This document shows, piece by piece, positions 1-13,183 of a DNA stretch of 64,000 nt. The DNA is from Gammaproteobacteria bacterium (GTDB taxonomy: Bacteria > Pseudomonadota > Gammaproteobacteria > CBDBNL01 > JAAOII01), in the NCBI GenBank assembly GCA_965209035.1, contig OZ242372.1, positions 2,080,001 through 2,144,000 on the forward strand, in the 5' to 3' direction. Position numbers and translations under genes: made by a program. How positions within the stretch are numbered: position 1 is the first letter of the stretch; every line of letters begins with the position of its first letter. The notes under the pieces were generated by a model, which made no database searches, was not told where the DNA came from, and worked only from the letters and a program-made list of their open reading frames with translations.

Positions 1-149
1 TTTAAAGGATATGCCGGCATTCAATGCCAAGTTCATCGCATGGCTGGCTTGGTATCATCGCGAACATCCCCATTATGCTCTCAAACAACTCTCGCCGATC
101 CGGTTTTTACAAAAATAAAAAAGTCCGAAAATAGGTAGGATTATATGCA
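1..149 (+). mobile_element. Decayed right end (transposase 3' end + IRR) of the IS481-family element; runs off window start
   Basis: Near-identical to 4440-4588 and similar to the reverse complement of 11880-12030 (…KDMPAFNAK…WLAWY…PHYALKQLSP region, ending aagtccgaaaataggtaggattatatgca). Confidence 0.9.
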
Positions 150-167
150 TGCAAACTTGTAAATCGG

Positions 168-176
168 TGTTATAAT
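168..176 (+). promoter_or_regulatory. Extended -10 box (TGtTATAAT) for lipoprotein gene 225
   Basis: Perfect TGnTATAAT ~50 bp upstream of ATG; identical copy upstream of 4664. Confidence 0.55.
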
Positions 177-224
177 GCTAACCTTATAAAAAAATTGTAT
201 AAACCAGTAACTCTTAAATAAAAA

Positions 225-2702
225 ATGATCAATAAACTTAACCTTTTATCAGTTCGGTCGGCGAAAGGAACAGCCGGCCAACTGTCCCGCCCGGCATTCG
301 CACGGGGTCTTAATAATGTTCCGAATACTTCAAAAGCTTTTTCAAAAGCTTTGATGTTGTTTGTTGGGCGAATTGCGTTGCCCTTAACGGCAGTTTCCAA
401 TGCTTTCCGGCGGATGAAACGGTCATCTCGTTTGGCTCGTTTAGGTCGTTTAGTGTGCACCGTTCTGCTGGCAGGCACATTCGGCTTGGTCCTTGCCGGT
501 TGTGGCGGAGGCGGCGGTTCCGGCGGCGGAGGCGGTGATCCTCGTGCTGTTGCCAAGATTGGAGTCAAGGCAGGTGAGGAGCATATTCTCGTGAGTTGGA
601 ACAACCCGGATCAGGCGAATATCACCGGGTTCAATATTACTTGGGTCAATGTTGGTAATGATGCCGATGTGAACGATAAGGGAATGAGGATCCTTACTGA
701 TGCTGATTTGCTGCAGCCCGGGAGTCGGGTGATGTACAACATTACGGGTCTAACCAATGGCAAACGCTATGAGATCAGGATTGCGGTGCTTTATGCGGAT
801 GGCACATCCTCGACCTTGGTTTCCGTTCAAGGCACGGCCGGGATGGATCCGGGTGACGGCGGTGATCCCAATTTTCCGGCTGTTTCCAATGTCCAAGTCA
901 TGGTCAGTGGAAATAATATTACCGTGAGTTGGACCAATCCGAGTCAGGATGGTCAGGAGGCTATCATCGGGTTCAATATTAATTGGATTAATGTGGATGA
1001 TAATGCCGATGCGAACGATAGAGGAATGGAACCATTTAATCCTCCCATGGCAAATGTTACAGCCGGTGCTTCGGTTACATATAAGATTCCGAATCTAAAC
1101 TATGACAACACCTACAAGATCACAGTTTCGGTGCGTTATGCGGGTCGTCAAGATCCCGTCCCTTCGACTGCGGTTGAAGGCAAAACCGGAATCAATCCGG
1201 ATATTGATGGTGATGGATTGTTGAATACGGATGATAATTGTCCGCTAGATAGGAATCCGGGGCAGGATGATAATGACACAGATGGGTCAGGCGATGCCTG
1301 TGATGATGACGATGACAATGATGGCACAAAAGACGCAGAGGATGCGTTTCGCACAGATGCATGTGCCAGTACCGACACGGATAAGGATGGCATGCCGGAT
1401 CGTTTGGTTGCCGGTTGTCAAAGTCCAACAGGCTTGACCGAAGACTCGGACGATGACAATGATGCTGTCCCGGATGAGACGGATGTGGATGACAATAATA
1501 ATAGTCTCATAGAAATTCGCAATTTGGATCAGTTAGCCCTACTGCGCGGCGATCTGAATGGCGATGGGGATGATGATGATGAGAATGACGGGATTACCGC
1601 GGTGGGCACTGTGGGTTGTCCGAGTTCCGGCTGTGCCGGTTACGAACTGACCCGCTCGCTCAATTTTAGCGATGCGGATTCCTATAACGGAAGCAGTGTT
1701 AATATGGACGACTGGACGGATCGCGATGGCAGCGGCTGGGTGCCGATTGGCTCCTGTGTTGCCGTTGATGATTGCACCCCTTATACGGGAATCTTTGATG
1801 GCAGGGATTATGCTCTTGCCGATCTGTTCATTGCTGCGGAGGCTACCGACAATGGAGTGGGCTTATTTAGTGCGTTCAATGGTAGTCTTCAAAATCTGCA
1901 TCTCCGGGATGTGAGTGTCAGTGGCGGTGCCAGTGATGTGGGTCTGCTGGTAGGCCATGGAAGGAATGCCCGTTATGTAAATCTGTTGGTTACTGGTGGC
2001 AGTGTGGTGAGTCCGGGATCCGACGTGGGCGGACTGGTTGGAGATGCGGATAGTGCGGAGATTCGCTATGCCGGTATATCCGATGTAGATGTTTCCGCGG
2101 GGGGAAATACTGTAGGCGGACTGGCTGGATCTGGGGAGATGATGGATATTCGCTATGCTTATGCATCCGACGGAAATATTTCCGGAGGCGCTCGTGTTGG
2201 CGAACTGGTTGGAGATGCTGATAATGCTGATATTCGCTATGTTTATGCGTCCGGCGGAAGTGTTGCAGGCAGCAGTGGTATTGGCGGACTGATTGGAGAT
2301 ATATCGAGCACTCAAATTCATGTTTCTTATTCCGCCACCGGATCTGTTTCAGGAGCTGGAATTGCTAGTGGCTTGTTCGGTATTTCCGATTCAGAAACCT
2401 TCGTCAATGTTTCCTATTGGGATACTCAGACCACCGGGCATTTAACCAATGACGGTAATTTTGGTGTGGGCTATACCACAACAGAATTGCAATCACCGAC
2501 CGATTTTACTACCGCCGGCGCGGATGGTTCGGACAATATCTATGCCGACTGGGACGGCATCTGGTGTCATCCGGACACGGGTGAAGTGATGGAAGTGGAT
2601 GATCAACCGGCCGGATTCTTAAGTGTTTGGGATCTTGGTAACGAGATGCAATACCCGGCTCTGAACTGCATGCCGGGCGGCCTCTCGGCACAGGGAAGAT
2701 AA
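225..2702 (+). CDS. Surface lipoprotein: two FN3-like domains, Asp-rich (TSP3-like) Ca-binding repeats, GLUG-like beta-helix domain
   Basis: 825-aa ORF; lipobox LVLAG-C followed by Gly linker; VSWxNP…YxITGLxxxxxY FN3-like motifs twice; DxDxDGxxxxxDNCP repeats; repeated VGGLVG. True start may be MKRSS at 414. Confidence 0.8.
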   Translation: MINKLNLLSVRSAKGTAGQLSRPAFARGLNNVPNTSKAFSKALMLFVGRIALPLTAVSNAFRRMKRSSRLARLGRLVCTVLLAGTFGLVLAGCGGGGGSGGGGGDPRAVAKIGVKAGEEHILVSWNNPDQANITGFNITWVNVGNDADVNDKGMRILTDADLLQPGSRVMYNITGLTNGKRYEIRIAVLYADGTSSTLVSVQGTAGMDPGDGGDPNFPAVSNVQVMVSGNNITVSWTNPSQDGQEAIIGFNINWINVDDNADANDRGMEPFNPPMANVTAGASVTYKIPNLNYDNTYKITVSVRYAGRQDPVPSTAVEGKTGINPDIDGDGLLNTDDNCPLDRNPGQDDNDTDGSGDACDDDDDNDGTKDAEDAFRTDACASTDTDKDGMPDRLVAGCQSPTGLTEDSDDDNDAVPDETDVDDNNNSLIEIRNLDQLALLRGDLNGDGDDDDENDGITAVGTVGCPSSGCAGYELTRSLNFSDADSYNGSSVNMDDWTDRDGSGWVPIGSCVAVDDCTPYTGIFDGRDYALADLFIAAEATDNGVGLFSAFNGSLQNLHLRDVSVSGGASDVGLLVGHGRNARYVNLLVTGGSVVSPGSDVGGLVGDADSAEIRYAGISDVDVSAGGNTVGGLAGSGEMMDIRYAYASDGNISGGARVGELVGDADNADIRYVYASGGSVAGSSGIGGLIGDISSTQIHVSYSATGSVSGAGIASGLFGISDSETFVNVSYWDTQTTGHLTNDGNFGVGYTTTELQSPTDFTTAGADGSDNIYADWDGIWCHPDTGEVMEVDDQPAGFLSVWDLGNEMQYPALNCMPGGLSAQGR

Positions 2703-2762
2703 GCAGATAAGCAAGTAAGCGAGAAGGCAAAGCGGACAAGCAAAAGCAAGAAGCAGACCGAA

Positions 2763-2796
2763 ATCTCGTTTGGCTGCTTCGGCGAGCCAAACAGAT
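2763..2796 (+). repeat. cUUCGg-capped hairpin downstream of lipoprotein gene (copy 1)
   Basis: gtttggct-gc-TTCG-gc-g-agccaaac stem; same hairpin at 7384-7416; no U-tract. Confidence 0.65.
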
Positions 2797-3093
2797 CGTT
2801 TTGGCGGCGATGCAGTGTCTATGCAGCAGCTGTGAAACGAAGATGAAGCGTCTGTGAAGCGTCTATGCATCTTCTGTGAAACGAAGACGAGTGTGCGGCC
2901 AAGAGTGCATCTTTAACAAGCGCCGATTTTTCTACAAGTTAAACCCCGCAATCGGGCGCGGCTGGGACGGATACGGTGGGACGGCAAGGCAAGTCCGCCG
3001 GCTGTGTTTCTGATGCCGGTGAGATCGCGAATGAGCATCCTATCCTTTTCATCTCTTTTTCTTTTTTTACGGATGCCCGTATCCGCTTATTCT

Positions 3094-3102
3094 TGTTATA
3101 AT
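3094..3102 (+). promoter_or_regulatory. Extended -10 box upstream of accD (second copy at 7710-7718)
   Basis: TGtTATAAT conserved in both duplicated copies. Confidence 0.5.
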
Positions 3103-3139
3103 GTATCTATTAAATGTATCTATCTAAAAGATTTGTTCT

Positions 3140-3844
3140 ATGAGTTGGCTAAATAAGATTGTTTCCGGGGTTTCCGGCACGGAGTCCCGTAAAAAGGAAG
3201 TTCCGCAGGGTCTTTGGCAGAGGTGCACCTCGTGCAGTGCGGTTCTTTACAAACCCGAATTGGAAAAGAATCTGAATGTTTGCGGTAAGTGTGATTTTCA
3301 TATGCCGTTGCCCGCCGGTAAGCGATTGGACTTTTTCCTGGATAAGGGCGAAAGAATCAAACTGGGCGAAAAAATTCTGCCTGCGGATCCGTTGCGCTTT
3401 AAGGATAGCAAGCGATATAAAGACCGTTTGACACAGGCACGCACGGACAGCGGCGAAGATGAGGCCCTGTTGGTGATGGAGGGCACATTGGAAACGCGTC
3501 CCGTGGTTGCCGCCGCATTTGAGTTTAAATTCATGGGAGGGTCTATGGGTTCGGCGGTGGGACAACGATTTGTGGCGGGAGTCGAAGTCTGTTTGAAAAA
3601 ACGAATCCCCTATATTTGCTTTTCCGCCAGCGGCGGGGCGCGCATGCAAGAAGGATTAATTTCGCTGTTTCAAATGTCCAAAACCAGTGCCGCTCTCGCC
3701 AGACTTGCCGAGGAGAAGATTCCTTATGTTTCCGTGATGACCCATCCGACCTATGGCGGTGTCAGTGCCAGTTTGGCCCTGCTGGGTGATATTAATATAG
3801 CCGAACCGCGCTTGACTTATCAGCAGCTCATCGGGAGGCGGTAG
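3140..3844 (+). pseudogene. accD: 3'-truncated duplicate of accD (first 224 codons) fused to a foreign 10-aa tail
   Basis: Protein identical to 7742-8602 through …NIAEPR, homology ends at 3812, then [10 protein letters not shown]; lacks the GFAGKRVI C-terminal region. Confidence 0.9.
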
Positions 3845-4169
3845 GTGAGCAGATGAGAAAGAAAGTGGCTGCAGCCGCCTCGCTAGCATGGTGTTTATCA
3901 GGATTGGAGTTTGAGGCAACACGATGAAGAAGACCCATTCAAAAGAAGATCCTCGGTGCAAGATCAAGTTGCAAGAGTTTGAGGAATTTTTCAGGCATCT
4001 GGCGAGTGCCAAGAAGTCCAAGACGTTAAAGGGTCAAGCGGGTTATGATCCTACCAAGAAAGAATTGGCACAGAGGTTTCAATATGATCCTAAAACAAAA
4101 AAAATTAATTTAATCGAAGAATGATCCGTACTTTCTTATTTTTTATGGGTAATCAAGTATATAATTCCC
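3813..4169 (+). mobile_element. Right-end remnant of a probable IS1595-family (ISNwi1-like) element
   Basis: RLTYQQLI* resembles the RLTYxxL C-terminus of IS1595 transposases; ends …tcaagtatataattccc, whose reverse complement GGGAATTAT fits the ggnnatTAT end of that group (from recall). Confidence 0.55.
3924..4124 (+). CDS. Small hypothetical protein, possible IS passenger
   Basis: 66-aa Lys-rich ORF with GAGG 8-11 nt upstream, inside the IS1595-like remnant. Confidence 0.45.
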   Translation: MKKTHSKEDPRCKIKLQEFEEFFRHLASAKKSKTLKGQAGYDPTKKELAQRFQYDPKTKKINLIEE

Positions 4170-4194
4170 CTTTTTTAATCTAAAAAATTCTATC

Positions 4195-4588
4195 GGCGAC
4201 CCGGTTCTTGCAAAAATACCAAAAGTCCGAAAATGGGTGGGATTATACACGCTCATCCGCATCATCGGTGGCCGCCGCATTCCATCGGGTCGTGACAGCA
4301 AACGGCAGCACCCACTGGCATACCCATACTATTTTATTTTTGGGGAAACCACAAATGAATGCACACTGTGAACGATTCAATCGCACTCCTTAAAAATATC
4401 TCGGGGGAAGAGTTCGGTTGTCATATGCGACATCTCCTATTTAAAGGATATGCCGGCATTCAACGCCAAGTTCATCGCATGGCTGGCTTGGTATCATCGC
4501 GAACATCCCCATTATGCTCTCAAACAACTCTCGCCGATCCGGTTTTTACAAAAATAAAAAAGTCCGAAAATAGGTAGGATTATATGCA
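4195..4588 (+). mobile_element. Two stacked IS481 right-end remnants (short IRR ending 4249; internally deleted transposase fragment + IRR ending ~4588)
   Basis: Encodes fragments FHRVVTANGSTHW, KPQMNAHCERFNRT, EEFGCHMRHLL matching the intact transposase, with deletions, insertions and frameshifts. Confidence 0.9.
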
Positions 4589-4663
4589 TGCAAACTTGTA
4601 AATCGGTGTTATAATGCTAACCTTATAAAAAAATTGTATAAACCAGTAACTCTTAAATAAAAA

Positions 4664-7336
4664 ATGATCAATAAACTTAACCTTTTATCAGTTCGGTCGG
4701 CGAAAGGAACAGCCGGCCAACTGTCCCGCCCGGCATGTGCACAGGGCATTCATCATTCTGTCCCAAATGTTTATCCTTTAATAAGGCTATTTACCGGGCG
4801 GATTATATCGCCGCTAACTGCGGTCTTTTTTAATGCTAATGCCGGCCTGCGGATGAAACGGCCGTCTCGCCCGTCTCGCCCGTCTCGTTTATCTCGTTTA
4901 ATATGCACCGTTCTGCTGACAGGACTATTCGGTTTGGTCCTGGCAGGTTGTGCTGGCGGTGGTGGCGGCAGTGGCGGCGGCAACTCTATTTCTTCCAACA
5001 TCTCGGTTGTCTCGAACATTCAAACCCTGGTCGGCGAGGATCATATTCTCGTGGGTTGGACCAATCCGGCTGAGGAGAATATTACGGGGTTTAATATTGT
5101 TTGGTTCAATGTTGCCAATGTGAGTGATGGCGACATGGCGGAACTTAATGCTACCGGCGCGGATGTTTTGCAAGGTGCCCGTGTGATATACAACATTACG
5201 GGTTTAACCAATCAAATCACCTATAACATCACGATTGCGGTACTTTATGAGAACGGCGATGTCGGGCTGTCATCTTCTGTGGGTAGCAGGGCCGGAGCGG
5301 ATGCGGGTGTGGGTACGGATATTGATCTTGATGGTACTAATAATGACGACGATGCGTTTCCGACGAATGCCTGTGCGAGCACCGATACGGATAATGATGG
5401 TGATCCGGATAGTGTGGTTGCCGGTTGTCAAACAGACTTGACGGCGGACCCGGACGATGACAATGACGGTGTGAATGATCTTGCCGACGACGGAATGAGT
5501 CCGTTAGATGCATGTCCGCGCGGCGATACAGGCTGGACTTCCGATACAACGACGGACCATGACAACGACGGCTGTCGCGATGACAGCAACGAGGATTTGG
5601 ACGATGACAATGACGGTGTGAATGATCTTGTGGATCTTTGCCGGCGGGGGGAAACGAGCTGGAAATCCAATAGGATGACGGATAATGACGGTGACGGTTG
5701 TCGTGATGCCGATGAGGATCCGGATGATGACAATGACGGCACAGAGGACACGGCGGATGTGGATGACAATAATAATAGCCTGATAGAGATTTACACTTTG
5801 GATGACTTGGTGCGGCTACGCGATGATCTGGATGGCAATGGGGTGGATGATGGCAATAACGGCACCATTACCGCTGTGGGTTCTGTGGGTTGCCCGGTCC
5901 CAGATGGCTGTGCCGGTTACGAACTGACCCGCTCGTTGAATTTTAGCGATGCGGATTCCTATAACGGAAGCAGTGTTAATATGGACGACTGGACGGATCC
6001 TGCCGGCAGTGGCTGGGTGCCGATTGGCGAATGTTCTGATACGAATACTTGCAACGCCCGTTATACGGCAACCTTTGACGGCGGCGGTTATCATATTGCC
6101 GATCTGTTCATCTCTGCGGCTGATGATGCGATTGGAGTGGGGTTATTTGCCTCTTTACAAGATGGTAGCATTCAAAATTTGCGTCTCTTGAATGCGAATG
6201 TTAGCGGTGGTGCCGCTAATGTGGGTCTGCTCGCGGGCTTTAGCGGCTCGGCTCGTTATGAAAATCTGTCGGTGATTGGGGGAACGGTAACGAGTCCGCT
6301 GCGGAATCGAGTGGGCGGGATGATCGGTTACGCGGAGAGCGTGAGCGCGAGCGGGTCGCACGTTGAGATTCGTAATTCCTATGTATCCGATATTGTTGTT
6401 TCCGGTAATGCTCAAGTCGGCGGTCTGATTGGTCAAGTCGGCGATATGGCTGGTCAAGTGGACGAGGCTACGATTCGTACTGTGTCTGTGTTCAATGTCA
6501 CTGTTACCGGTCGGGGGGCGGGGGTCGGCGGTCTGATTGGTCAGGCGGACGAGGCTACGATTCGTGCTGTATCCGTGTTCAATGTCAATGTCAATGTCAC
6601 TGTTACCGGTGCCGTTCGGGGGGTCGGTGGCCTGGTCGGAGTGGTGGATGCTGCTATGATTCGTGCTGTGTCCGTATTCGGTGGCACTGTTACCGGTAAT
6701 AATAATGTCGGCGGCATGATCGGTGACAGACCGGATGGTGGAAGCATTCCTGGCGGCACTCCAAATTTGGAGCCTGTTGAGATTCATCATTCCTATGTGT
6801 CCGGCGTAGATGTTTCCGGTGATAATCAAGTCGGCGGTTTGATTGGCAGAGGAGATATTAGTACTATTAATCATTCCTATGTGGTCGGCGGCACTGTTGA
6901 CGGTAGTAATAAGATCGGTGGTCTGGTTGGCGCTGGCGGGCCCGATATTCGTTATTCCTATGCGGCTACTCCTGTCTCGGGCAGCGGGAATGTCGGCGGG
7001 TTACTTGGTTCCAATGAGACACTTAGCACTTTCACACCAACGGTTATCGCCTCCTATTGGGATAATGAAATCACGGGACAGCCAACCAGTGTGGGCGGTG
7101 GAATGGGCCTGACCACCAACGCTCTGCAAAGCCCGACTACTTTCACAGGCATCTATGCCGATTGGGATAATTTTTGGTGTGATCCGAGGACGGGCGAAGT
7201 GAGAGAGGATTCTACTACTGACGGTCTGGGTGCCCCCTTTGTCCCTGTCTGGGATCTGGGCGAGACAGGCCAATACCCCGTTCTGAACTGTCTTTCTGTC
7301 AGCGTAGAAGATCAACAGCAACAGCAGCGGCAGTAG
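4664..7336 (+). CDS. Surface lipoprotein paralog: one FN3-like domain, expanded Asp-rich repeats, GLUG-like domain
   Basis: 890-aa ORF; lipobox LVLAG-C; DxDNDGCRD repeats; VGGLIG repeats; first 25 aa identical to gene 225. Confidence 0.8.
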   Translation: MINKLNLLSVRSAKGTAGQLSRPACAQGIHHSVPNVYPLIRLFTGRIISPLTAVFFNANAGLRMKRPSRPSRPSRLSRLICTVLLTGLFGLVLAGCAGGGGGSGGGNSISSNISVVSNIQTLVGEDHILVGWTNPAEENITGFNIVWFNVANVSDGDMAELNATGADVLQGARVIYNITGLTNQITYNITIAVLYENGDVGLSSSVGSRAGADAGVGTDIDLDGTNNDDDAFPTNACASTDTDNDGDPDSVVAGCQTDLTADPDDDNDGVNDLADDGMSPLDACPRGDTGWTSDTTTDHDNDGCRDDSNEDLDDDNDGVNDLVDLCRRGETSWKSNRMTDNDGDGCRDADEDPDDDNDGTEDTADVDDNNNSLIEIYTLDDLVRLRDDLDGNGVDDGNNGTITAVGSVGCPVPDGCAGYELTRSLNFSDADSYNGSSVNMDDWTDPAGSGWVPIGECSDTNTCNARYTATFDGGGYHIADLFISAADDAIGVGLFASLQDGSIQNLRLLNANVSGGAANVGLLAGFSGSARYENLSVIGGTVTSPLRNRVGGMIGYAESVSASGSHVEIRNSYVSDIVVSGNAQVGGLIGQVGDMAGQVDEATIRTVSVFNVTVTGRGAGVGGLIGQADEATIRAVSVFNVNVNVTVTGAVRGVGGLVGVVDAAMIRAVSVFGGTVTGNNNVGGMIGDRPDGGSIPGGTPNLEPVEIHHSYVSGVDVSGDNQVGGLIGRGDISTINHSYVVGGTVDGSNKIGGLVGAGGPDIRYSYAATPVSGSGNVGGLLGSNETLSTFTPTVIASYWDNEITGQPTSVGGGMGLTTNALQSPTTFTGIYADWDNFWCDPRTGEVREDSTTDGLGAPFVPVWDLGETGQYPVLNCLSVSVEDQQQQQRQ

Positions 7337-7383
7337 ACTGTCAGCAGCGGGTAAGTAGAAACGGAATAAAAAAGCAGACCAGG

Positions 7384-7416
7384 TCTCGTTTGGCTGCTTC
7401 GGCGAGCCAAACAGAT
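7384..7416 (+). repeat. cUUCGg-capped hairpin (copy 2)
   Basis: Same stem-loop as 2763-2796. Confidence 0.65.
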
Positions 7417-7741
7417 CGCTTTGGCAGCGATGCAGCGGCTATGAAGATGCCGTGAAGCAGCAATGCAGTGTCTGTGAATCTTCTGTGAAACGGCGATGCG
7501 TGCGCGGCCAAGAGTGCATCTTTAACAAGTGCCGATTTTTCTACAACTTAAACTAAACCCCGCAATCGGGCGGGGCTGGGAAGGTAGGACAGTGGGACGG
7601 CAAGGCAAGCCGGCCGGCTGTGTTTCTGATGCCGGTGAGCTCGCGAATGGGCATCCTATCCTTTTCATCTCTTTTCTTTTTTTACGGATGCCCCTATTCC
7701 GTTTGTTCTTGTTATAATGAATTTATTGAAAGATTTGTTCG

Positions 7742-8602
7742 ATGAGTTGGCTAAATAAGATTGTTTCCGGGGTTTCCGGCACGGAGTCCCGTAAAAAGGA
7801 AGTCCCGCAGGGTCTTTGGCAGAGGTGCACCTCGTGCAGTGCGGTTCTTTACAAGCCCGAATTGGAAAAGAATCTGAATGTTTGCGGTAAGTGTGATTTT
7901 CATATGCCGTTGCCCGCCGGGAAGCGATTGGACTTTTTCCTGGACAAGGGCGAAAGAATCAAACTGGGCGAAAAAATTCTGCCTGCGGATCCGTTGCGCT
8001 TTAAGGATAGCAAGCGATATAAAGATCGCTTGACACAGGCACGTACGGATAGCGGCGAAGATGAGGCCCTGTTGGTGATGGAGGGCACATTGGAAACGCG
8101 TCCCGTGGTTGCCGCCGCATTTGAGTTTAAATTCATGGGAGGGTCTATGGGTTCGGCGGTGGGACAACGATTTGTGGCGGGAGTGGAAGTTTGTTTGAAA
8201 AAACGAATCCCCTATATTTGCTTTTCCGCCAGCGGCGGGGCGCGCATGCAAGAAGGATTAATTTCGCTGTTTCAAATGTCCAAAACCAGTGCCGCTCTCG
8301 CCAGACTTGCCGAGGAGAAGATTCCTTATGTTTCCGTGATGACCCATCCGACCTATGGCGGTGTCAGTGCCAGTTTGGCCCTGCTGGGTGATATTAATAT
8401 AGCCGAACCGCGCTCGGACATAGGTTTTGCCGGTAAGCGCGTGATCAAACAAACGGTCAAGCAGACACTGCCCGAGGGCTTTCAAACCAGTGAATTCCTG
8501 TTAGAACACGGCGCCTTGGATTTAATCGTGCAGCGGGATGAACTGCGAACAAAAATTGCCTCGCTTCTCAATATTCTTTATCCTCTCGCCAAAGCAGACT
8601 GA
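7742..8602 (+). CDS. accD: Acetyl-CoA carboxylase carboxyltransferase beta subunit
   Basis: LWxxCxxC…CxxC zinc finger, [24 protein letters not shown]; adjacent to folC. Confidence 0.97.
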
Positions 8603-8725: not shown

Positions 8726-10117
8726 ATGCCACCAATGACCCCGGAAGCACCGGAAGCATACATTAAAGAACAGATAGCAAAGCAGGGGCTGTCTGCGGAA
8801 GATGTGTTGCTCGGGTTGGACCGGATATCGGCTGTCCTCGGACGCACGGAGATTCGCCCGCCGCCGTTTATTTTTACGATTGCGGGGACCAACGGGAAGG
8901 GAAGTTGTGCCAATCTTATTTATCAGGCACTATTGGTTGCGGGTTATCCGGCGGCATTTTTTTCTTCGCCGCATTTGTTGCGGTTTAACGAACGGGCGCA
9001 AATCAACGGCGAGGAAGCACATAACGAAGAATGGTTGGCTTCTCTGGAAAGAGTGCACCGTGCCAAACAAAAAGTCAAACTAACCTACTTTGAATATTGC
9101 ACTTTGGCCGCTTTGGATATCTTTTCTCGCAGGTCCGCGTTTCCTTGGGTTTTGGAGGTGGGTTTGGGCGGCCGTTTGGATGCGGTGAATGTTCTTGATA
9201 CAAACTGCGCGGTGATTACTTCCATCGACATAGACCATACGGACAGGCTGGGTAAGGACCGTGTGTCTATCGGGCACGAAAAAATGGGTATTGCGAGGAG
9301 AGGTGTGCCGTTGATATGCGGCGAGCCGTCTCCGCCGGCTGAAGTCATTAATGCCGCAGAGCAAGCGGGTGCGAAATTGTTGTGTGTTAATCGCGATTAC
9401 GGCGTTCGGGGCAAGGGCCTAACCGAGTGTTGTTTTGCGGAAGAGCCGATCGTCGAATACTATGCTTCTCGCCGCTTTGTCCGGGGTAACACCGATGACC
9501 CGCAAACCGATGCACTAAAAAGAGAGCCGGCGGTGTTGTGTGCCACAAACGAAGATCAGTTGGCGGTGAACCTGGCAACCGCTTGGCAGGCGTTGAATGT
9601 TTTTGACGACAAATGGGATGCGGATCTTGTCGCCGCGACCTGGCATAAAGCCCGATTAATCGGCAGGTGGCAAAAGATCCGTTTCGGTCAACATCTTTTG
9701 ATTTTGGATACGGGGCATAACCCGCAAGCGGCGCGCATCCTGGTGCATAGGCTGCAAGAAAAGATCTTTCCATATGCCCGGGCGGAAATTATCTTTGCGA
9801 TGCGCGCGGACAAAGACTGGCAAGAGTTTTTAAAAATCACCTCGCCTCATATTAAAGAATGGCATCTTTTCCCGCTGTTTATGCAAACCGACGAGGGTGC
9901 GCCCAAAGAAATCTCCGTTGCCAAAACTTCTTTGGAGAGAGCATTGAATCGTTTGCACGCCCGCACCCATTGGTACGATCATGCCAAGCAATTGCTACAA
10001 TCGCTTCGTCTCAGAAGTGAGCCGACTGTGTTTTGGGTTTGCGGTTCTTTTCACACATTGGGCGAAGTGATGCAACAATTACGGGAGGACACCCCGGCCG
10101 TCAAAGCGGTGTCTTGA
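8726..10117 (+). CDS. folC: Folylpolyglutamate/dihydrofolate synthase
   Basis: IAGTNGKGS, SPHLLRFNER, LEVGLGGRLDAVN, DTGHNP motifs; follows accD. Confidence 0.95.
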   Translation: MPPMTPEAPEAYIKEQIAKQGLSAEDVLLGLDRISAVLGRTEIRPPPFIFTIAGTNGKGSCANLIYQALLVAGYPAAFFSSPHLLRFNERAQINGEEAHNEEWLASLERVHRAKQKVKLTYFEYCTLAALDIFSRRSAFPWVLEVGLGGRLDAVNVLDTNCAVITSIDIDHTDRLGKDRVSIGHEKMGIARRGVPLICGEPSPPAEVINAAEQAGAKLLCVNRDYGVRGKGLTECCFAEEPIVEYYASRRFVRGNTDDPQTDALKREPAVLCATNEDQLAVNLATAWQALNVFDDKWDADLVAATWHKARLIGRWQKIRFGQHLLILDTGHNPQAARILVHRLQEKIFPYARAEIIFAMRADKDWQEFLKITSPHIKEWHLFPLFMQTDEGAPKEISVAKTSLERALNRLHARTHWYDHAKQLLQSLRLRSEPTVFWVCGSFHTLGEVMQQLREDTPAVKAVS

Positions 10118-10335: not shown

Positions 10336-10444
10336 ACTGGCTGGCTTGGGATCATCTTGAGCGTCCCCATTATGCTCACAAACAACTATCGTCGATCCGG
10401 TTTTTGCAAAAACAAAAAAATCCGGGAATGGGTGGGATCATGCA
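10336..10444 (+). mobile_element. IS481 right-end remnant upstream of giant lipoprotein gene
   Basis: tggctggcttgg…cgtccccattatgctc…ttttgcaaaaacaaaaaaatcc…aatgggtgggatcatgca matches the reverse complement of 11880-11990. Confidence 0.9.
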
Positions 10445-11741
10445 AAAACCGACATTCTTTAGTGTATAATATATATGTGTTTGGAAATATTGTTTATTTT
10501 TCGTATGATGGCGACCGATGATTGCGACCGGATGCCGCATTACGATTCTTACGCAAGGGATGTTCGTGTCTCTGTTTTTTATTTCCTTAAGAACATTTTT
10601 CACATTATTAAAACTACAAATATATAGGAGAAAATAATATGTATCATATACACCTCATCATTAGTAACCTGATTAATAATTCCATTAATCGGGTTCATTC
10701 AATTGGAAGTTCGGTTGCAAATGCGATTGCAAATACAATTGCAAATACAATTAGAATCTCAACTGTGATTAAAGGAAACATTAAAGGAAGCTGCGGGAAA
10801 GAAGCATCGTCTTTTGCCCGATGGCGAATAACACAGGTCCTGCCGGGTTCTTTAAATCTGCGCGCCTTTGGATTTGTGTCTGTTCTCTGCTTGGCATCGT
10901 TTCTCACGGCATGTGCGGTTTCCTCCGATAGTGGATCCGCTGCCCCCGCTCCCGACCCAAAGGATCCTCGCTCCGTATTTTCGCACGCGAGTTACAACCT
11001 GGTCGGTTGGGGGGAGACTACGACATCGGCTAATCAGGTCTTAGGAAAGGTGGTTCTGGAACCGAATGAGGTTCTCGCACTCTTGCCGGAAGGAGTGAGT
11101 TCGTATAATACTTCTTTTCAACTGGAAGGCAGTGAACTTGCCAATGAGTTTTTTGGGGTGAACGACGCGGGCGAGATCCGTTTCAAAGATGGAAATAGTT
11201 ATGGTCGCGAATTCCAATTGCACTATGTGGTTAATGTGTTAGAGGTTTCCGAGTTTGAAGTGGTGGCAAGGATCTCCTATACGAATGCCGCCGGTGAATC
11301 GGTTAATGTGGAACATCGTGTTACTATCAAGATTGCGGCTGTTGCAATCGATCCACAAATTACCAACTTTGTCCGGTTTGATGGCAAGGCTGACGAAACT
11401 GTACAAAATCAAACTAAAACATACGGGCTGAGTGGCACAATTCCTGAAAACAGTGATCCCGGGACACCTGTAAGCGGTACGGGTAATTTACTGACAGGTC
11501 TGGGAATTAGCACGGTGATTCCGGATGATGCGGAAGAGCAGGGATACCCTAGCGGATTCACGCCAACAATTTACTATCAACTGGCATCCGCTCCCGGCGA
11601 TACCTCTTGCATGGGCCGCTATTATGTGGACAATCAGAATAATCGCGCTCGGGTGCGTTCGGATATCGGCGATGCCTTGAATTACGAGGCGGAAGGACGC
11701 AACAACGCATGTGCTTTGCAAGCCTCCTTGAACGGAGTGGA

Positions 11742-12908
11742 TTATGAGAATGTAACGACCGGGGCCCTGTCAGCCGAAGATTTGGAAAATGTGGAGGAGC
11801 TTGTTGGTGCTGTGAGTTTCGGTGTTGATGCGTCTTGCACGAACAATGTTACGGCGGCAAAAGACTTGGAAACCTGTAGTGTATGATCCCACCCATTTCT
11901 GGACTTTTTTTGTTTTTGCAAAAACTGGATTGGCGAGAGTTGTTTGAGAGCATAATGGGGACGTTCCAGATTATACCAAGCCAACCACTCGATGAGTTTG
12001 GCGTTGAATGCTGGCATATCCTTAACCAAGAGATGCCGCATATGACAACCGAACTCTTCCCAGAGAGTGCGATTAAACCGTTCGCAGTGTGCATTCATTT
12101 GCGGTTTCCTTGGATAGGTATACCAGTGGGTGCTGCCGTTTGCGGTCACGACCCGGTGAAAGTCTTTGGCGAACTCACTGCCATTATCGGTGAGGACTTT
12201 TTCGATCCGAGTGCCGAGTATGTTTTGCATGGCGGTAAAGAGCTGGGCGGAACTGGCCGAAGCAGCCGAGGTGTCGACACTGACCAGTGAGAAGCGGGAA
12301 AATAGATCAATGCCGACATGCCAATAAAAGCGCCGGCCATCGACGATGCGGACGAGCGTATCAAAGGCAACACATTCACCTCTCCGGCCCGCAACAAAGC
12401 GGATGTCCTTGCGCTCGCGCGGAGCACCTTGCCGCAGGCGTTTCGGCACGGACCGCGATGGTTTGCACCGCATCTTATCCGGGTCATCGGCAATGATGCG
12501 AGAGAGCGTTGATTGGCTGGGCAGCGGCAGCCCGCGCTGCTGACACCATTCGGGTAACAAGCAGACCAGTTTACCGGCACCGATGTTCGGACGCTCTTGT
12601 CGCCAAGATCGGATCTTGGTAATCAGTGCCGGTGGCCAGGTGTTGGACCGCTTGGGCTGATACCCATAGTTGTTCGCCAGTTCATCGACCCCGCCTTCAC
12701 GGAAACGCCGCTGCCACTCGTAGAATGTAGCACGACTGATCCTGGCATGATCCAACGCGGCCGCGACACCATGTTTGCGCGCGAACGCTAAGGTGTCCAG
12801 TTTGATTTTGGTGGTTTTAGACATGTTTGAATATTTGTTTGCTAAAACCACCATTTTATTGAAACCGCGCACGCGATAACCAATGTAGTGTAAACGTGTT
12901 CCTCTCAT
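11742..12908 (-). CDS. IS481-family DDE transposase (start likely internal; ORF reads out past the IS end)
   Basis: HTH (ISRATFYEWQRRF), integrase core D (AFDT), D (TDNGSEF), E (PQMNAHCERFNRTL), YNxxRPH. Confidence 0.92.
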   Translation of the reverse strand: MRGTRLHYIGYRVRGFNKMVVLANKYSNMSKTTKIKLDTLAFARKHGVAAALDHARISRATFYEWQRRFREGGVDELANNYGYQPKRSNTWPPALITKIRSWRQERPNIGAGKLVCLLPEWCQQRGLPLPSQSTLSRIIADDPDKMRCKPSRSVPKRLRQGAPRERKDIRFVAGRRGECVAFDTLVRIVDGRRFYWHVGIDLFSRFSLVSVDTSAASASSAQLFTAMQNILGTRIEKVLTDNGSEFAKDFHRVVTANGSTHWYTYPRKPQMNAHCERFNRTLWEEFGCHMRHLLVKDMPAFNAKLIEWLAWYNLERPHYALKQLSPIQFLQKQKKSRNGWDHTLQVSKSFAAVTLFVQDASTPKLTAPTSSSTFSKSSADRAPVVTFS

Positions 12909-13183
12909 TTCAAATCACCTCCGCGGTGCAGCCGCTCTCGCACACCGTACCGTCTTGCCAGCGGATACACCTAGACAGTTTTATCAACAACAAGCCTCCG
13001 CTGTCTGCGGCGGTGAGAGCAAAACAGCTATCCATCTTTCTTGCCCGTTTCATTCATCTAGCTCCACATACCGGAGACCCGTTGCCGGATCTATTTTCGA
13101 CCCGTCCGACAGAACATCCGGCTGCTTGATCTGAGGACGCACAATACCAAACTCAGAGTCCAGAACCTTTATGAGATCATGCA
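11880..13183 (-). mobile_element. IS481-family insertion sequence, 1,304 bp, 5-bp target duplication TGTAG
   Basis: Imperfect terminal IRs tgtatgatcccacccatttctggact / agtccagaacctttatgagatcatgca; TGTAG at 11875-11879 and 13184-13188. Confidence 0.92.

Follow-up and report, generated by a model that had tools for sequence, protein, structure and literature searches.

Tandem units with diverged lipoprotein genes and a truncated accD copy upstream of accD in an uncultured gammaproteobacterium

The present analysis concerns the region upstream of accD at the left end of a 64,000-nucleotide (nt) stretch of genomic DNA, hereafter the window, from an uncultured, insertion sequence (IS)-rich gammaproteobacterium (GenBank assembly GCA_965209035.1, contig OZ242372.1, abbreviated C1). 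The genome consists of two contigs of 2.18 Mb and 65.7 kb, and the window corresponds to C1:2080001-2144000. Upstream of accD lie two direct units, each composed, in this order, of a remnant of a putative IS481-family end, a leader, a lipoprotein gene, a hairpin, a locus-specific accD upstream region, and accD itself, which is intact in unit 2 and truncated in unit 1 (accD'). The two accD copies differ at silent positions only, and near-identical outer edges enclose a strongly diverged interior.

Layout of the duplicated accD locus

By self-comparison with gapped alignment, the units extend over window positions -269..3812 and 4170..8414, negative positions lying to the left of the window. They are direct neighbouring copies with a new joint between 3812 and 3813, followed by a filler of 357 nt. 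The two near-identically flanked units reported in the initial annotation are real, whereas the limits given for them, 1-3812 and 4440-8414, fall short of their true extents. The features of the locus, in window coordinates, are as follows.

1..151, plus strand: putative IS481-family 3' remnant of unit 1, by IS homology; starts at -269, terminus at about 151
152..297, plus strand: leader of unit 1; TATAAT at 171-176 in the aligned column, family-shared block ending at about 300
414..2702, plus strand: lipoprotein gene 1, 762 amino acids (aa) from the ATG at 414; frame open from 225
2768..2792, plus strand: hairpin with UUCG loop, 3' of lipoprotein gene 1; inter-unit homology resumes
2965..3139, plus strand: accD upstream region, copy 1; about 15 substitutions and 4 indels against 7579-7741
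3140..3844, plus strand: truncated accD'; 224 AccD codons (3140-3811), 10 unrelated codons and a stop
3813..4169, no strand assigned: junction filler, genome-unique; orphan 66-aa frame at 3924-4124
4170..4590, plus strand: putative IS481-family remnant of unit 2; solo end at 4190-4250, transposase C-terminal piece and terminus at 4251-4590
4591..4736, plus strand: leader of unit 2; TATAAT at 4610-4615
4853..7336, plus strand: lipoprotein gene 2, 827 aa from the ATG at 4853; frame open from 4664
7388..7412, plus strand: hairpin with UUCG loop, 3' of lipoprotein gene 2
7742..8602, plus strand: intact accD, 286 aa, Zn ribbon and carboxyltransferase domain
8726..10117, plus strand: folC; accD-folC pair conserved in relatives

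The left flanks, -269..297 and 4170..4736, differ at only 2 of 567 nt, at positions -204 and 25, and in the part already described as near-identical (1-297 against 4440-4736) there is a single difference inside the window. This near-identity breaks off sharply at 298/4737. The core that follows can be aligned only poorly between the units, with 25-70% column identity and large indels. Similarity is back from about 2759/7380 and amounts to 77-89% along the intergenic stretch up to accD.

The lipoprotein genes of the two units (lipo1 and lipo2) are strongly diverged, as first noted, with 37% amino-acid identity over the body and 51% at the N-terminus. Their likely start codons are those at 414 and 4853 and not those at 225 and 4664, because the signal peptide and the lipobox LAGC begin there. 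The genome has 87 open frames, each at least 200 aa long, of the family to which both genes belong. The nearest paralog of lipo1 is at C1:527633 (49.6% identity) and that of lipo2 at C1:826415 (68.6%). Each gene is therefore nearer to a paralog elsewhere than to its counterpart, and the two are distinct family members and not simple alleles, the term used in the initial annotation.

The intact accD holds both the Zn ribbon and the carboxyltransferase domain at full length. On the other hand, accD' ends inside the carboxyltransferase domain (profile positions 27-146 of 493); its start codon and Zn ribbon are retained, and its frame is open for 234 aa. The hairpin predicted earlier between the lipoprotein gene and accD exists in both units in identical form, with a 10-bp stem and a UUCG loop. 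It has no T-run and was not called as a terminator; a scan for terminator-like sites showed no enrichment (14 against 9.2 expected), and the intergenic folding energies are unexceptional (z from +1.0 to -2.0). The filler at 3813-4169 is unique in the genome, its only match being a weak one of 73% over 113 nt. Its final 35 nt are similar to part of the leader at two other loci of the lipoprotein family. The 66-aa frame within it has no match in Pfam or NCBIfam and none in four family-level genomes.

Silent differences in accD and the mosaic of divergence

When accD' (3140-3812) is aligned with accD (7742-8414), 10 of 673 nt differ, and every one of the differences is synonymous and at a third codon position. 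None of the 224 codons changes its amino acid (S=155 synonymous and N=517 nonsynonymous sites, synonymous divergence dS=0.067; 8 transitions, 2 transversions), and the estimate made by eye in the initial annotation is thus reproduced by the alignment. With the observed spectrum, the probability that all ten differences are silent is P=6e-6 for two neutral copies and P=4e-4 if accD' alone was neutral and the other copy constrained. A chance origin of the silent-only pattern is excluded, and so is pseudogene decay in place, as had been argued from the start. Since every accD difference is silent, the diverged tract must derive from a lineage whose accD was functional over this part, in agreement with the proposal that both copies come from functional alleles.

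The differences are unevenly distributed along the units. Among the synonymous sites of accD, 10 of about 104 differ in the first 450 nt whereas none of about 51 differs in the last 222 nt; over its final 223 nt, accD' is in fact identical to accD. Together, the outer edges of the units differ at 2 of 790 nt. In the locus-specific intergenic stretch 2965-3139, by comparison, about 15 of 175 positions carry substitutions. Divergence at neutral sites in the interior is about 9-10% and extends into the first 450 nt of accD, and the older diverged tract stops within accD, between 3589 and 3812. Fisher tests on this mosaic give P=7e-11, 2e-8 and 0.03, the first comparing the left flank with the right-hand neutral sites and the last comparing the first 450 nt of accD with its last 222 nt. 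The edges thus share a very recent ancestor, and the interior, at about 9-10% neutral divergence, a much older one.

To place this mismatch in the context of the family, 231 pairs of IS-linked family units were compared, and the 5' modules are at least 90% identical in only two of them. The accD-locus pair has 99.3% identity in the module, 48% in the body, and 74.5% downstream, and the second pair, from another array, has 91.4%, 80.2%, and 88.6%, respectively. So strong a mismatch between flank and body is special to the accD locus among these pairs, which points to a cassette swap at this site and not to a rule for the whole family.

A source for the interior within the same genome was also looked for. 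With 200-nt tiles, no near-identical copy of either cassette was found elsewhere in the genome; the best tile identities are 72-88% for lipo1 and at most 93% for lipo2, whose 3' half is 86-93% identical to a paralog at C1:826-828 kb. Recent conversion from an internal paralog was accordingly rejected, as there is no near-identical donor and such an event could not explain the accD tract anyway. An island of 94% identity between 1629-1751 and 5906-6028 was likewise considered as a conversion patch between the units and discarded, a third paralog having it at 90-96%.

Origin of the two units

The best reading of these observations, held with moderate confidence, is a recent tandem duplication together with homologous import from a diverged lineage with a functional accD. 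A segment of about 4.1-4.4 kb, from the IS481-end remnant through the first 673 nt of accD, would have been duplicated in tandem, leaving the truncated accD' linked to the second unit via the filler of 357 nt. A double crossover would then have replaced the interior of one unit, between 298 and a point about 450 nt into accD, with DNA from a lineage of about 9-10% neutral divergence, which had a different family member at the site and a functional accD. The tract ending in accD before 3590 and the sharp left boundary suggest that incorporation took place by homologous recombination in the conserved flanks. The external origin of this DNA is probable, and the most likely order is duplication first and import into unit 1 second. 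In that order, the right-hand crossover would be forced to lie inside the short accD' stump, where the differences stop, so that near-identical edges and differences ending before the end of the stump are both expected. The outcome would be a pair of neighbouring genes for distinct surface lipoproteins, each preceded by a 5' module. All the processes needed are ordinary and known.

As accD' could not be selected where it now stands, the silent-only differences in it serve to date and source the neighbouring cassette. The stump is thus a built-in marker, which would trace the adjoining lipoprotein gene to another lineage. More generally, the locus provides sequence evidence from an uncultured, IS-rich bacterium that members of a large surface-lipoprotein family may be swapped through recombination in conserved flanks, and that a duplication can preserve the old and the new variant together.

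Several points weigh against duplication with import. A donor flank with 10% divergence would be expected to leave some single-nucleotide differences, yet there are none for about 270 nt to the left of 298; this would put the crossover right at the border of the homology block or call for later homogenisation of the flank. The filler and a left duplication boundary unmatched upstream of unit 1 do not fit a simple tandem duplication. In the sequencing runs X1-X3, which come from one sample, probably the source of the assembly, and consist of k=31 contigs only, no read or contig spans both units, and the junction contig is one letter under the 31-letter bridging rule. The left flank in X2 has a depth of 29.5, about twice the unit-specific depth, which alone would fit a mixture of two strains. 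Moreover, no strain-level genome showing the donor allele was found: AccD-anchored scans gave at best 63% identity in genome contigs and 62% in metagenome contigs (80 loci each, among the matches listed), and a DNA search of 30 related genomes gave 68-71% nt identity for the best accD and no near relative.

A possible but doubtful alternative is the capture of a whole foreign unit, in which an IS remnant, a lipoprotein allele, and the 5' part of accD from another strain were added beside the resident unit and thereby made the tandem itself, for instance through a circle integrated by a single crossover or through unequal pairing driven by transformation. The initial annotation had suggested such a capture, with accD and the IS remnant as homology anchors. 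Its foreign origin is well in line with the silent-only accD differences and with the missing internal donor, and the filler may mark where the incoming molecule was joined. Transformation in Streptococcus pneumoniae is also described, in PMC3784515, as producing tandem duplications bordered by incomplete IS copies. However, a whole foreign unit should be diverged throughout, and here the edges differ at 2 of 567 and 0 of 223 nt and only the interior at 9-10%; the foreign-origin part of the proposal is retained and the whole-unit part is not. Under capture, a replacement must in addition have happened earlier in one or the other strain.

Two known systems resemble the accD locus in part. In the minimal mobile elements of Neisseria, whole-gene cassettes are swapped at one site by homologous recombination in conserved flanks, according to PMC3082526, which cites Saunders and Snyder 2002 and Snyder et al. 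2007 for them. The silent-only tract reaching into accD resembles the footprint of such a flank crossover. In contrast to the elements as described there, the left anchor at the present locus is an IS remnant with a leader and not a conserved gene, and, owing to the duplication of the site, neither the old nor the new cassette was lost. The likeness is drawn from a single genome. The merodiploidy induced by transformation in S. pneumoniae involves tandem duplications of about 100-900 kb between two IS repeats, as outlined in PMC3784515. In both cases, an essential gene is kept in one intact and one altered copy, with incomplete IS copies at the borders, whereas the accD duplication measures only about 4.1-4.4 kb, has its right end inside accD and not in an IS, and carries filler at the joint.

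An old duplication in place is very improbable. It would require both accD copies to have remained under purifying selection while the lipoprotein genes diverged or were converted and the edges were later homogenised. The start codon, Zn ribbon, and 234-aa frame kept by accD' are compatible with it, and tandem copies can convert each other. Nevertheless, it demands a function for half a carboxyltransferase subunit, two homogenised edges, and the loss of all internal donors, and no truncated accD was seen in four family-level genomes.

The last alternative is an assembly artefact, either two single-unit strains concatenated or variants misassigned over two identical copies. A chimeric assembly had been named in the initial annotation as the outcome that would overturn the structure; at the k-mer level it is not borne out, reads that span the units being outside the data. 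A contig covering window 3783-4199 spans the filler completely and reaches 30 nt into accD' on one side and 30 nt into the IS remnant on the other, with a depth of 11.6 in X1 and 18.5 in X2, about that of the contig running from accD into folC (13.6 and 16.2). Contigs specific to unit 1 have depths of 9.7 and 10.3 (X1), 17.3 and 18.6 (X2), and 22.5 and 20.9 (X3), and those specific to unit 2 have 13.8 and 10.8 (X1), 13.8 and 14.7 (X2), and 16.9 (X3). The flanks lie at 13.3-13.6 in X1, at 16.2 (right) and 29.5 (left) in X2, and at 23-29 in X3. In X1, the unit-specific contigs are thus not halved (9.7-13.8 against 13.3-13.6), and the summed depths of the two units exceed those of the flanks (10+12 against 13.5 in X1, 22+17 against 23-29 in X3). 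Apart from the left flank in X2, where 29.5 compares with 14-19 for the unit-specific contigs and speaks for an artefact, the depths match one genome with both units and not two single-unit strains.

The 673-nt accD segment appears only once in the contigs of each run, as a collapsed or mosaic path, which would also be compatible with an artefact. In X2 this path is identical to accD', the path in X1 is a mosaic that contains four accD' letters, and that in X3 departs from accD at three letters; the collapsed path shows that both versions are present. A cell with the joint between accD' and the filler, and hence a truncated accD, needs an intact accD as well, and this speaks against a simple chimera. 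Concatenated haplotypes would moreover not yield a unique 357-nt filler. An artefact is the least probable of the explanations considered.

X4, an independent sample under the same species label, had 264 reads placed at about 1-4x coverage, most of them 90-95% alike and a share of 0.72 continuing on unlike sequence. Bin coverage was about 1.2-2.6 for lipo1-specific sequence and 0.01-0.25 for lipo2-specific sequence and the intergenic region of unit 2. The resulting hint of a lipo1-like gene elsewhere was set aside, since a signal so thin and so confounded by paralogs does not qualify as evidence.

The lipoprotein family, its IS-end modules, and the neighbourhood

Of 22 aligned members of the family, 19 have fn3, 14 have Glug, and 13 have TSP_3. 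A profile built from this alignment matches thrombospondin chains (E 3e-24) and the beta-helix chains of IgA1 protease (E 2e-9). With lipo1 and lipo2 alone, fn3 is the sole match at E<=0.01, and Glug is not matched by lipo1 alone even in a relaxed scan. The AlphaFold model of lipo1, with a mean predicted local distance difference test (pLDDT) score of 73.7, has two beta-sandwich domains, a low-confidence Asp-rich linker, and a beta-helix at residues 445-670 that is confident, with a pLDDT of around 90. A Foldseek search with the whole model returned tandem fn3 pairs only and nothing on the beta-helix. According to the model, lipo1 would comprise two fn3 domains, an Asp-rich TSP3 linker, and a beta-helix. 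Both genes, each with the lipobox LAGC, fit a family of fn3 / TSP3 / GLUG beta-helix lipoproteins.

The IS end identified earlier at the start of each unit is indeed a 3' remnant, probably of an IS481-family element, and consists of a C-terminal piece of the transposase and a terminal repeat. In unit 2, a second, solo IS end at 4190-4250 precedes the transposase piece. A full element lies at 11880-13183 in the window, and more than 20 copies exist in the genome; the pieces inside the units match only its 3' end. The frame of the full copy (11742-12908) matches NF033577 with E 2.4e-51 and 174.9 bits, which is below the curated cut-off of 224, and rve, rve_3, and HTH domains were found in its transposase. 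A further IS-end remnant at 10338-10441, 85% identical to those of the units, lies upstream of a lipobox frame at 10639-11886 (415 aa). This frame has no match in Pfam or NCBIfam, is 84% identical to C1:1764703-1766082, and has the full IS next to it.

The same IS terminus, in the same orientation and within -400..+500 nt of the frame start, accompanies 22 of the 87 family frames. There are 62 such termini in the genome, and about 1% per gene would be expected by chance. In 20 of the 22 IS-linked upstream regions, TATAAT or a variant with one mismatch occupies one aligned column, and 11 of these are exact, as judged by eye. This -10 box lies 20-35 nt past the IS terminus and is followed, in the alignment of the 22 regions, by a conserved leader, which is about 150 nt long in each unit. 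The block conserved across the family ends at about 4740-4750, exactly where the near-identity between the units stops. A promoter consensus scan showed no enrichment (11 promoter-like sites against 10.6 expected) and missed the -10 box of the leader, which has no -35. The combination of an IS481 end and a -10 box at 22 of 87 members suggests a role of the IS remnant in expressing or moving these genes.

The conserved leader, for example at window 4591-4745, comes after the IS terminus and the -10 box in most of the IS-linked members (22 loci). In both units, it also holds an open frame from about 190 nt before the ATG of the signal peptide, and this could be either an element of the 5' untranslated region or an upstream frame. 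Another array of the family, at C1:1198564-1210205, holds five family genes. In four of them, an IS terminus lies 3-85 nt upstream and the leader is almost the same. One adjacent pair in it has identities of 91% in the module, 80% in the body, and 89% downstream.

IS481 ends are known to act as promoters in Bordetella pertussis, where, according to PMC6161684, they give outward promoters as well as hybrid ones, whose -35 comes from the IS repeat and whose -10 comes from the flanking DNA. The family modules are similar in that an IS481-type end lies immediately before a gene and points the same way. On the other hand, the well-known outward promoter Pout is at the left IS481 end, whereas here it would be the transposase-distal 3' end, mostly as a remnant, and the likeness is drawn from DNA sequence alone.

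It is unlikely, although the idea deserves mention, that the IS481 end with its leader on the 5' side and the hairpin or the neighbouring gene on the 3' side are portable anchors for the exchange or addition of lipoprotein cassettes between strains and loci. The module would at the same time be a promoter, and the accD' stump would mark an intermediate of capture without loss by which the 87-member family grew.

Variable surface lipoproteins are encoded by multigene families such as vlp/vsp in Mycoplasma and vls in Borrelia. The present family resembles these in being large, with conserved 5' parts, variable bodies, and a partly tandem arrangement. In contrast, it shows no sign of an expression site with silent cassettes, and neither lipo1 nor lipo2 has a long homopolymer switch: homopolymers of at least 8 nt are absent from both lipoprotein genes, in which G6 runs are the longest. 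The locus does not consist of promoterless partial cassettes that feed one expression site, as in the pilE/pilS or vls type; both units have the same 5' module, a -10 box, and complete frames. The initial annotation had also pictured an allele-accumulating array that might continue to the left. What lies to the left of unit 1, on the minus strand, is rpsB-tsf, pyrH, frr, uppS, cdsA, dxr, rseP, and bamA, and the array does not continue there. With only two units, there is no sign of ongoing accumulation, and nothing seems to point to a dedicated allele-accumulating mechanism.

In the loci of four relatives, folC follows accD in three, and no lipoprotein, rpsB, or transposase match lies within 10 kb of accD in any of them. 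The rpsB-tsf frame of the present genome, on the minus strand at C1:2077537-2079429, encodes S2 (residues 8-223) and EF-Ts (424-623) in 630 uninterrupted aa; the linker of about 200 aa between them would reflect a genuine rpsB-tsf fusion or else the loss of a stop codon. In the dnaE-bamA interval (L001:4379-7496, minus strand), three tandem copies of a membrane protein (285, 314, and 312 aa) recur with a period of about 1.1 kb. They are 95-98% identical, with a variable number of 11-residue repeats, and further copies of this protein are located at C1:259-261 kb.

Other long repeats are also present in the genome. In total, 47 pairs of non-IS length have at least 95% identity, and further housekeeping-gene stumps may be among them. 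In addition, four 100% identical copies of about 1.99 kb occur at C1:97120-99111, 139398-141390, 802345-804337, and 2175606-2177597, and they presumably represent another IS that was active very recently.

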